Program-made: the position numbers and the translations under genes
Notes under the pieces: generated by a model
Seen by the model: the letters and a program-made list of their open reading frames with translations, nothing else
Told to the model about the DNA's origin: nothing
Databases searched by the model: none
NCBI GenBank assembly: GCA_951406725.2
Contig: OX597839.1
Coordinates: forward strand, 32,364,001 to 32,428,000
Direction: 5' to 3'
Origin: Octopus vulgaris
Taxonomy: Eukaryota
DNA length: 64,000 nucleotides
Part shown: piece by piece, positions 37,730-54,641 of the stretch
Position numbering within the stretch: position 1 is the stretch's first letter
Layout of the letters: each line of letters begins with the position of its first letter

Positions 37730-38475
37730 AGCCGGGTGAAGTGCTTAGCGGTATTTCGTCTGCCGTTACGTTCTGAGTTCAAATTCCGCCGAGGTCGACT
37801 TTGCCTTTCATCCTTTCGGGGTCGATTAAATAAGTACCAGTTACGCACTGGGATCGATGTAATCGACTTAATACGTTTGTCTGTCATTGTTTGTCCCCTC
37901 TGTGTTTAACCCCTTGTGGGTAGTAAAGAAATAGGTATTTCGTCTGCCGCTACGTTCTGAGTTCAAATTCCGCCGAGATCGACTTTGCCTTTCATGCTTT
38001 CGGGGTCGATTAAATAAGTACCAGTTACGCACTGGGATCGATGTAATCGACTTAATACGTTTGTCTGTCATTGTTTGTCCCCTCTGTGTTTAGCCCCTTG
38101 TGGGTAATAAAGAAATAGGTATTTCGTCTGTCTTTACGTTCTGAGTTCAAATTCCGCCGAGGTCGACTTTAGCTTTCATGCTTTCTGGGTCGATTAAATA
38201 AGTACCAGTTACGCACTGGGGTCAATATAATCGACTTAAACCGTTTGTCTGTCCTTGTTTATCCTCTCTGTGTTTAGCCCCTTGTGGGTAGTAAAGAAAT
38301 AGGTATTTCGTCTACCGCTAAGTTCTGAGTTCAAATTCCGCCGAGGTCGACTTTGCCTTTCATCCTTTCGGGGTCAATTAAATAAGTACCAGTTGCGTAT
38401 TGGGGCCGATCTAATCGACTAGCCCCCACCTACCCACCCACCAAACATTCGGGCCTTGTGCCTAGAGTAGAAAAG
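37730..38475 (+). mobile_element. family A SINE head-to-tail array, 184-bp period
   Basis: GGTATTTCG recurs at 37750, 37934, 38118 and 38302. The last unit ends in the alternative (old) tail. Confidence 0.92.
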
Positions 38476-39027
38476 GAACAGGCTGCCGCCAAAAAATTAA
38501 AAAAAAATCACGATATACATTTTACAAATGTAATTTAGGTTAAGAGTTCTGACTCTTGGCAACCCTGAAGTATGACACCCAATAACATTCCTTACCCTCC
38601 GTCTGTCCTAAATCTAAACTCATTATTCATATCAATGTTGTTCATTGTTCAAAAAATATCCAGTTACCATAGTAATGACTTTTTTGTCCGTTGTTGGAAC
38701 AACAAGGATTATCCTTAAAAGTAATGTCTGTAGTCTTTGATTCGTCTTGAAAAGATATGTTATTCAAGTACATCTTGCGGCCCTTACAAGTTTTTTTTTT
38801 TCCTTTTCTAAACTTGTCTTTAAGTTGTCTTCTAATTCCTTGGGCAAAGTCAAATCAATAAGTCTTCATTAGACTCATGCATTTTGTTCGACGCACGCTT
38901 ATTCCTGATATGTACCCACTTCACAGTAAATTGTGGCTTGTTTAATTTAGGAATTTATTGATCGAATACTGCAGGAGCACGTTGTTAGAACGGAAACTGA
39001 CAAGAAAACAGGAGCCACGTAATCACT

Positions 39028-39120
39028 TTCATTAGCTTACAGCTGTTTCTGCTAAAAGAAGCAGCGCATTCAGCGCTGAGTACTTGTGCAACGTCTTATA
39101 ACTTCCTCAGAGTCATTGAA
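39028..39120 (-). ncRNA. degenerate Type I hammerhead motif
   Basis: Minus strand reads UUCAAUGACU-CUGAGGA-AGUUA...UAGCA-GAA-ACAGCUGU-A-AGCUAAUGAA, with imperfect stems I and II. Confidence 0.55.
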
Positions 39121-39772
39121 ATGGAATGGATGCTTATTTTGGAAAGATGTGTTACTGTACTATAGGCTTCATAGATTTTAGCCAACAATCTATAGAACAG
39201 AGGGAGAGAGAGAAAGAGAGAAAGAGAGAGAGAGAGAGAGAGAGAGAGAAGGGGGAAACACCTAGTTCCTACAAGCAATATTCTCGTGACCAAGGACTAA
39301 GAAATAAGCCGAACTAATGTCAAACCCAACTCGTATGGAGATCTTATTTAAGGGCCCTTTTTAGCTGTTCACCCCTCACTGAGTACCCTCTATGTAACTG
39401 TCCGCAGAGACAGCACTTATAAACCCACTCTTACTCAGGCCTTAACTAAACTGGATACAGCGCTGTACGTCTGAACGTATCACCGCACATCCTTGGCTGA
39501 CGGTCCATAAATTCTGATTTTGTGCGTTTGTGTTTTGTTTCACTGCTGTGATGTGCTGCAGAATACATCTATAGATTTTAGTCGCCTCTGTATCTCATGA
39601 AGAAACATAATCACCTTGTCTTTTCTCTATAAATATCTTTGTGGACATTCACACACACACACACACGCGTATAGACACATACAGAAACATATATATATGA
39701 GCATCACACACACACACACACACTTATATACATAGAGGGCGCTGACAACGCAGCTAATGGAATAGAACGGTC

Positions 39773-39785
39773 GTTGCTAGGCAAC
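39773..39785. promoter_or_regulatory. candidate RFX X-box
   Basis: GTTGCTAGGCAAC, within the longer inverted repeat TCGTTGC-TAG-GCAACGA. Motif match only. Confidence 0.45.
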
Positions 39786-52420: not shown

Positions 52421-52654
52421 GAAACTAACTTCAACGGCAGACATTTATAATCATGGCGAAATTAGCGTTGTAACACGTAGCCAAACCAGTACGTGATATT
52501 GTCATGGCTACGAGAGTTTGCGGGAAACTCTGCCGCTTGTTCACGCTGACAACGAGATCAAAAACAATAACTTTTTAATCTGATTGACGACACACACACA
52601 CACACACACACGATGCCTTGGATATATATATATATATATATATACTCTGTACCT

Positions 52655-53158
52655 CTCTCTATATAAATGGCAAAATGTCTGCGTGCGTGTCCTTTCTACA
52701 AATCCACAATTTTTCAGTTAGAAGGCTCGCACTTTCTATGGTCATTGAAAACCGTCCAAGGGTGGTCGTGCACATCTTTACATTTCCCCAGTCACCCCGC
52801 AAAGCCATTAAAAAAATCAATAGAAGTGACTTTTTTGTGAATTTCCTATCCAAAACCCAATCAAAATGCCCGAAACTTGATACGCCAATTGAATGCCAGC
52901 TAGCTGTATGTGATTGGTCGGGAGATTTGGACAGTATTCGCGTGTATGTGCGCAAGCATGCAGCTGTATATGCATGCACTAGCACTATGACCCGGTGTTG
53001 TCAGGTCATAGTGCTGGTAGTGTGTAAAATCCAAAGGAGCGAACCCAGGCGCCGCCTATCGAGTGAAGTACCGTGTAATTGTTTTATCTTAATTCTACAT
53101 CTTTCCTGTAATTCGATGTGGTTAGCCAGAACCTGGATTATATCAGTGCTATTATAGT
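52655..53158 (+). mobile_element. probable non-autonomous Helitron-like element
   Basis: The start TCTATATAAATGGCAAAATGTCTGCGTGCGTGTCC resembles Helitron 5' ends. No clear CTAG 3' end. Confidence 0.4.
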
Positions 53159-53518
53159 ACCTACTCGGAATACAAAATCCATTTTTCTTTACGTCACACA
53201 CACACACATACACACACACACACACACACACACACACACACACACACACACACACACACACACACACACACACACACACACACACACACATACACACATA
53301 CACACACACACACACACACACACACACACACACACACACACACACACACACACACACACACACACACACACACACACACACACACACACACACACACACA
53401 CACACACACACACACACACACACACAAGATGGAATAAACTTGCTTTAATTACAAATTACCACATTTGTTTGTGTACTATGGCAATACCTGCCCGTTGCTA
53501 AGTTTTCAGTCTCATGCC

Positions 53519-53752
53519 TATTTCTTTATTGCCCACAAGGGGCTAAACACAGAGGGGACAAACAAGGACAAACATAGGTATTAAGTCGATCACATCGACC
53601 CCAGTGCGTAGCTGGTACTTAATTTATCGACCCCGAAAGGATGAAAGGCAAAGTCGACCTTGGCGGAATTTGAACTCAGAACGTAACGGCAGACGAAATA
53701 CCGCTAAGCATTTCGCCCGGCGTGCTAACGATTCTGCCAGCTCGCCGCCTTG
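53519..53752 (-). mobile_element. full-length family A SINE with 13-bp TSD
   Basis: TSD TCAGTCTCATGCC (53506-53518) and TCAGTCTCATACC (53753-53765). Confidence 0.9.
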
Positions 53753-54641
53753 TCAGTCTCATACCATTACTCTTTACTCTTTTACTTGTTTCAATCATTT
53801 GACTGTGGCCATGCTGGAGCATCGCCTTTAGTCGAGCAAATCTACCCCCCAAGACTTATTCTAAGCCTAGTACTTATTCTATCGGTCTCTTTTGCCGAAT
53901 CACAAAAATAAATACGACTTACTATTAGCTATTTGCCGACACTTCATCAGGGAGATAGCTTTTGAAGCACCCCCTCCCAACCACCACCACCACCACCACC
54001 ACCAGCAGCACCGGTGCCTCCGCCGCCGTCGCCACCACCACCACAACCACCACCAAACATCGCAATCAACATTGATGTCTTGTTCTCTGACCAAATCATC
54101 TTCCAGGATGAAGACGAAAAAATATCCGAGTAAAACTACTTCGAAGTAAGAGTAAAGAAAATTGACTACAGCCGTCACTCGCGACCGGATATGGATGATG
54201 TATGGAAAAGCCTTAGGGGCTTAATGTAGTCGTCAGCAGGCGTAGACAGCCCCTCGGTCCTCCATCCATTGATCTAGCAGAACATCGAGGATGTGAAAGC
54301 TGAAGGAAGAGAGACCTGCCCCAGTAGTCTGCTGGTATTCATTCTCAGTTGAAGACACTGTGAATGCGTGTGACCTACTGGTTTGGGTATTGGGCTAATG
54401 TTCATAAAGTCGCGGGTTCGATTCCTGCGCTTCATTTTACCTTGCTTCAGTCTATTCGCCTAAATAATAGCATCTCTCTTTAACTTGCGTCAGTCGTTAG
54501 ACAGACACACAAACATACACATACACACATATATATATATATATAAAGTTAATCCAAACAAGAAAACAAAAAGACAACAACGCAAGGACGTGGAACAAAT
54601 AAAGTATTATTGGACGCTCAGGAAAGAAGGGAAGAAGGAGG

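Follow-up and report, generated by a model that had tools for sequence, protein, structure and literature searches.

A SINE of Octopus vulgaris targets fixed positions in its own head, likely by pairing of its run-on transcript with the target

The window analysed here, the whole stretch of 64 kb from Octopus vulgaris, contains two main tandem arrays with a period of 184 bp (37750-38420, 3.6 copies; 50522-51355, 4.5 copies), the units of which belong to a SINE that is also present as solitary copies. The question raised by this locus is how a dispersed element comes to lie head to tail. A sequence-only reading had proposed an insertion preference for GGTAT, a word of the SINE's own head, such that the element would be its own best target and each insertion would regenerate the site, leading from SINE to satellite. 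All features listed in that reading were found, including the period of the arrays.

The SINE and its copies in the window

The element is a short, dispersed high-copy SINE of 233 bp with target site duplications (TSDs). The solitary copy 53519-53751 (minus strand) serves as reference, on which head positions are numbered; GGTAT is situated at position 50 and AGAAW at position 17. The 3' end is sharp, at AAGAAATA, and the TSD starts with the first base past it: identity within TSDs goes from 0.19-0.38 ahead of the tail end to 0.83-0.97 past it (103 TSDs of 233 terminal tails), and TSD lengths are mostly 12-18 bp. No T4 run exists anywhere in the unit. The head contains words that we take, by eye, to be A-box- and B-box-like, and a Deu/Nin-like core may be present as well. 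Rfam and ARAGORN gave no match to the SINE, and a hairpin in its tail was unsupported (z 0.57). At six loci (L171, L187, L193, L208, L231, L274), an extra copy of 5-7 bp of the tail end lies ahead of the TSD, which resembles slippage as reverse transcription starts. The names of the octopus SINEs OK, OR1 and OR2 and of the Deu/Nin-type SINEs are taken from PMC4758252 and PMC4824008; in a recent octopus repeat annotation, most active SINE families are left unclassified, according to the part of PMC13282606 consulted.

Table 1. SINE-derived features of the 64-kb window
Feature	Coordinates	Strand	Description
Array 1	37713..38475	+	Degenerate head, three 184-bp new-tail units, last unit with old1 tail
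Array 1, new-tail units	37750-37933, 37934-38117, 38118-38301	+	
Array 2	50457..51390	+	Old-type head, four new-tail units, last unit with old2 tail
Array 2, new-tail ends	50687, 50871, 51055, 51240	+	
Solitary 5'-truncated copy 45355-45522	45343..45534	+	12-bp TSD starting GGTAT (45343-45354 / 45523-45534)
Solitary full-length CAATA-type copy 53519-53751 (reference)	53506..53765	-	13-bp TSD (53753-53765 / 53506-53518)
Solitary TAGTA-type copy	19899..20134	-	GGTAT next
Solitary copy	21303..21575	-	TAT-class TSD (target class of the partner LINE)
Nested pair	34697..35191	-	T-type unit attached to position 50 of the head in a CAATA unit; the latter attached in turn to position 17 (AGAAAC) in the head of a truncated host
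Head, unit and 26 bp of following unit	35485..35742	-	Flank and head within inverted duplicate of 50236-50520
Rearranged cluster	35963..36607	-	Partial units, one GGTAT junction (36285)
Dimer	55694..56240	-	T-type unit and old1-tail last unit, then directly another head from its position ~18
Dimer	7100..7485	-	Old-type head, new-tail unit, old1-tail last unit; junction 7250

Both main arrays finish in an old-tail copy, as had been noticed before, and the TSDs at 45343/45523 and 53765/53518 are real. At 19898, GGTAT does adjoin a TAGTA-type copy, but a TSD was looked for and none was found. The junction at 35510 is present; its head, however, is not independent, since it lies within an inverted duplicate of 285 bp and 99.3% identity (35678-35962, minus strand; 50236-50520, plus strand), which includes the head of the array at 50457 and represents a recent duplication or an assembly feature. 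The two arrays of the window that have an old-type head (50457 and 7485) are recombined in appearance. Within the rearranged cluster, a tail fragment (36081-36135) is inverted. At ~55855 (minus strand), as at the loci L262, L070 and L176, an old1 tail is joined directly to head position ~17-18; it is suggested that the older (old1) family also self-targets by tail microhomology.

Concerning the words that follow the 18 new tails of the window, GGTAT occurs 14 times and GGCAT once, the remaining tails being followed by AGAAA (34775) or TATAT (21323) or constituting an inverted fragment (36134). The enrichment noted as "almost always GGTAT" is thus real, but it is confined to one tail lineage and amounts to 53% there genome-wide. 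The word AAGAAA at 34772 had been regarded as an exception; its AGAAA is a junction into head position 17 and hence a second self-target.

Target words of the tail lineages and insertion into the SINE head

Counted as exact tail matches in the 2.80-Gb assembly of 227 contigs, TAGTA (T) tails number 59,934, of which 16,636 have GGTATTTCGTC, and CAATA (C) tails 16,944. GGTAT follows 31,853 T tails and 976 C tails, AGAAW 752 and 5,520, respectively. As the background of GGTAT is only 0.07% per position, its enrichment after the tail is far above chance. About half of the retrieved CAATA tails followed by AGAA run on as head position 17, so that a second self-junction exists; spacings of 216-219 bp were encountered 7 times.

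The target preference sits on the target side and is split by tail lineage. The word precedes the head in 860 (T-GGTAT), 501 (T-AGAAW), 56 (C-GGTAT) and 175 (C-AGAAW) full-length copies, and true first-unit TSDs were found in 22/30, 0/15, 5/15 and 17/30 of the fetched loci of these classes; the first of these ratios bears out the expectation that solitary insertions would be enriched in GGTAT-starting TSDs. In the tables of unselected TSDs, from which the loci L121-L290 (chosen on the flank word) are excluded, T copies start with GG in 11/20 cases (exact GGTAT in 6/20) and with TA in 2, and C copies with TA in 12/25, AG in 4 (a class under-sampled here) and GG in 3, the ratio of GG to TA starts being 11:2 in T and 3:12 in C (p=0.002). 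The CAATA-centred stretches skipped copies known to have AGAAW or GGTAT next, such that the local C set under-counts both classes; this bias is absent from the genome-wide counts. A body allele at position 131, which was not selected for, marks the TA/AA class (32/55 vs 57/493). Among AGAAA targets, 8/13 have C as the next base, matching the SINE head (background 16%; three of the 8 lie in one host repeat). Common to the T and C lineages is an N-R-T-A-T tendency in the TSDs, with a purine at -3 and a pyrimidine at -1 of the cut site, and this shared tendency suggests a contribution of the endonuclease.

Two further observations concern solitary copies and a foreign host. Many solitary T-type copies have C or A at head position 50 and consequently a head without the GGTAT target, which is in part CpG decay and in part looks like a sub-lineage allele. 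One other repeat was hit repeatedly by CAATA-type copies, at a site that starts with AGAAACTGAAAG (L261, L275, L277, L282, L097).

Fixed positions in the head of the SINE, and the junctions that arise there, receive new copies of the element, as the sequence-only reading had proposed. A search for head positions 51-60 followed by a fresh head within 14 bp yielded 150 matches (tandem head repeats being counted more than once), and in 21 of 30 fetched loci, by our own reading, a full-length new-tail copy with a TSD is followed after its tail by position 50 again. Eleven of these 21 insertions hit a head, the other 10 a junction that already existed; the regenerated site is therefore re-used. The junction-forming tails (n=260) are predominantly T-type (194), besides 55 intermediate and 11 C-type tails. 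Per site, SINE sites are hit ~15-25 times more often than other GGTAT sites (71 junction runs vs 49-140 remaining heads; 20 exact GGTAT insertions vs 842 other GGTAT sites), by our own arithmetic in a SINE-rich sample. Among 151 self-junctions, 131 are seamless, 1 is full-length and 19 are of other form, such that the step that makes nearly all of them is not seen. One copy (L034) contains 29 bp of the following unit inside its TSD, a single case that fits a read-through template. Tandem arrays of a 64-65-bp head segment (G000:C10:17996024-17996501; L181/L182) apparently arose by expansion of the duplicated head that a full-length self-insertion leaves behind.

Sizes, unit ages and growth of the arrays

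In about 2 Mb of SINE-centred loci, the array lengths are distributed as 133 dimers, 30 trimers, then 9, 5 and 2 arrays, and one 11-mer; new-tail loci with 1, 2, 3, 4, 5 and 6 units number 99, 60, 16, 6, 3 and 1, respectively, in the 10-kb blocks and the window. Long homogenised arrays, as expected of a satellite, were not found in these loci, and the proposed route from SINE to satellite is accordingly overstated. The nearest relative of a unit lies in its own array in 6/154 units of dimers, in 53/115 units at n=3-4 and in 38/43 units at n>=5, and the units of the 11-unit array (L351) exhibit 0-3 differences. The units of dimers are thus mostly not each other's closest relatives, in agreement with the earlier suggestion, but independent insertions do not account for the many units of long arrays; own-array neighbours being rare in dimers and dominant at n>=5, arrays are started by insertion and then extended by local duplication.

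The last units of 180 arrays are of old1 (48), C (44), T (39), other new (25), old2 (11) and unclassified (13) type. In dimers that end in an old1 tail, divergence is higher in the last unit than in the first in 28 vs 7 of 39 (p=2e-4), with values of 0.074 and 0.044; solitary copies diverge by 0.095 (old1) and 0.036 (T). Private changes common to both dimer units amount to 57, vs 20 by chance, and DNA-level exchange therefore also acts. An apparent replacement of the host head by the incoming head (p=6e-7) was withdrawn, since the solitary old1 set held position-17 junctions and two old1 sub-types.

The partner LINE and the choice of target

Six matches to the tail lack the SINE body and have another upstream sequence in common, which identifies a LINE; the tail shared by SINE and LINE comprises ~45 bp and has the same end point. 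The LINE contains RVT_1 (E 1e-31) and zf-RVT domains, its best match among solved structures is L1 ORF2p (PDB; E 6e-44, vs 9e-21 for R2), and its closest named relatives at the protein level are cephalopod. Full-length relatives carry the APE domain PF03372; the APE assignment of the partner itself rests on these relatives because the copies found here are 5'-truncated. All 10 LINE ends found, both tail variants included, are followed by TAT (8 by TATC and none by poly(A)), and copies are located in (TATC)n runs. The domains put the LINE in the L1 group. A preference for a repeated (microsatellite) target and the lack of a poly(A) end are Tx1-like traits, and we infer a placement in the Tx1 clade. 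It is young; its copies are near-identical, with long open frames and 99% amino-acid identity. An RTE partner was considered and rejected, as a T-stretch at -10 was not clear (T 0.42-0.45) and the LINE found is L1-like.

The earlier alternative of RNA pairing or a specific endonuclease can be narrowed: RNA pairing is favoured, because the target words differ between lineages whose tails are almost identical, and because TAT is the landing site of the LINE with the shared tail. The SINE thus likely targets its own head by means of a run-on transcript that pairs with a target nicked by the L1/Tx1-like LINE. As the SINE has no T4 run, Pol III would continue transcription into the flank, whose first bases are those of the TSD, and the RNA would extend past AAGAAAUA into GGUAU or AGAAAC. 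The LINE reverse transcriptase would start at the tail end, the next bases acting as a guide atop a loose endonuclease preference. Such a guide would be inherited, the downstream flank of each copy being its own TSD, and a master situated within a SINE head would have a long guide matching all other heads. TAT might represent the ancestral, LINE-like state, from which the AGAAAC and GGTAT lineages would have arisen by masters that landed in the SINE head. The 5' end may join by homology, or the 65-bp head duplication may collapse later, either giving seamless units of 184 bp (or 217 bp); copying of multimer RNA is a further possible source of seamless junctions, and dimers would lengthen afterwards by local unequal exchange or slippage. 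Counting against a guide, many T-type TSDs begin with words other than GGTAT. A guide match past 5 nt was not seen in 26 TSDs at non-SINE GGTAT sites (T at position 6 in 9/26, background 39%), and RNA-templated correction (overwrite) of the downstream TSD gave a null result with strict TSD calls (4 toward, 3 away); a looser run (11 vs 3) was discarded on account of three misaligned TSDs. The seamlessness of nearly all self-junctions, the excess of private changes common to dimer units and the recombined appearance of two window arrays likewise weigh against the model.

Plain DNA recombination (unequal crossover, ectopic conversion) might be thought to make all arrays, GGTAT then reflecting one founding duplication. 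The local homogeneity of the long arrays, internal units that are chimeras of host and new copy (L062) and the excess of private changes common to dimer units agree with it, and it is the model put forward for squamate SINE satellites in the consulted part of PMC10702118. It can, however, yield neither TSDs starting with GGTAT or AGAAW at unrelated sites, nor full-length TSD-flanked inserts in heads, nor the unrelated partners within dimers. As the sole cause it is refuted by the self-insertions together with these TSDs, a chance of its being right is hardly left, and it is accepted only for lengthening. Less easily dismissed, though still unlikely, is that read-through multimer transcripts of a limited number of self-inserted masters gave rise, in one piece, to the majority of seamless dimers and short arrays, fresh self-insertion playing a minor part. 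This agrees with the missing terminator, with TSDs around whole arrays, with the excess of seamless junctions over full-length self-insertions (131 to 1), with a young-type first unit at positions 63-65 in 24/39 and with the lack of an age gap between the units of T- and C-ended dimers. Yet the last units of the 180 arrays derive from every family and show no clonality (mean pairwise distance 0.17), a signal that many masters would blur, and full-length insertions at formed junctions exist.

That the endonuclease sets the target, LINE subfamilies of different times cutting GGTAT, AGAAW or TAT and the SINE RNA having no role, appears improbable, more so than copying of multimers. The shared N-R-T-A-T tendency with its bases at the cut and the null overwrite result speak for it, and target choice in the Tx1 clade is attributed mainly to the endonuclease in the part of PMC4494074 consulted. 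On the other hand, both tail variants of the LINE land on TAT (in 10 ends, few enough for a LINE that targets GGTAT to have escaped notice), the T and C lineages are similarly diverged (0.036 vs 0.048), both preferred words match the SINE head exactly at the junction positions, and a preference for a 5-mer cannot explain the excess of hits at SINE sites. Pairing of the run-on transcript with the target thus remains the preferred reading. Going further, the SINE could be a natural RNA-guided retrotransposon, the preference of which is not encoded in the element: a landing-site guide inherited with the TSD would drift from TAT over AGAAAC to GGTAT and lock on the SINE promoter region. We hold this view tentatively, its chances being slightly below even; if true, one LINE enzyme is re-aimed by a few bases after a 45-nt tail.

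The pairing of read-through RNA with the target proposed for this SINE resembles R1Bm and R2Ol, for which the consulted parts of PMC7265360 and PMC6530143 describe that the RNA pairs with the nicked DNA through the downstream target sequence it carries, and that priming thereby gains in accuracy or efficiency. R1Bm and R2Ol are, as described there, autonomous rDNA-specific LINEs with one target fixed by the endonuclease, whereas the octopus SINE is non-autonomous and has several lineages with different words, two of them from its own head. For AfroSINE and Sauria SINE, which are RTE-related, near-identical SINEs with different 3' ends have different TSD starts, and RNA-target pairing was proposed (PMC6007223, as far as consulted); in these SINEs a microsatellite tail within the element serves as guide, with an overlap of 1-2 nt, whereas the octopus SINE has no repeat tail, its guide would lie outside and comprise ~5 nt, and its partner is L1/Tx1-like. 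In crocodilians, the consulted part of PMC4494074 reports that SINEU is mobilised by Tx1-Mar and that repeated insertion at one site leads to tandems. Both SINEs borrow a target-specific LINE of Tx1 type or L1 group; SINEU, according to that part, shares the target of its LINE (another transposon) and its tandems retain the TSD between full copies, whereas the octopus SINE leaves the TAT target of its LINE, hits itself and forms seamless truncated units. In squamate SINE satellites, too, part of a SINE is repeated in tandem, the terminal unit is longer, and longer arrays are more uniform; these satellites were seeded, as proposed in the consulted part of PMC10702118, by unequal recombination and reach up to 1000 units, in contrast to the octopus arrays, which start from targeted insertion at a fixed position and are mostly dimers. 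In the open-access papers searched, no description of self-targeting in cephalopod SINEs was found, nor was a report of SINE lineages directed to their own head by a guide that is inherited.

Tens of thousands of insertions constitute a natural test of the extent to which an L1-group element is directed to its target by the template RNA rather than by the endonuclease, and they provide a defined insertion route from a dispersed SINE to a tandem repeat, for which published cases invoke recombination. This would also explain the fragmentation of SINE annotation into many families in such genomes. Near-identical LINE copies that have long open frames make an assay with swapped guides practicable. 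The window also contains, at 31578-32154 and 29391-29769, older fragments of about 58% amino-acid identity that are related to this LINE. Near one LINE copy (L070, about 3050-3200, minus strand) lies what we take, by eye, to be an exon for a GATA-type zinc finger.
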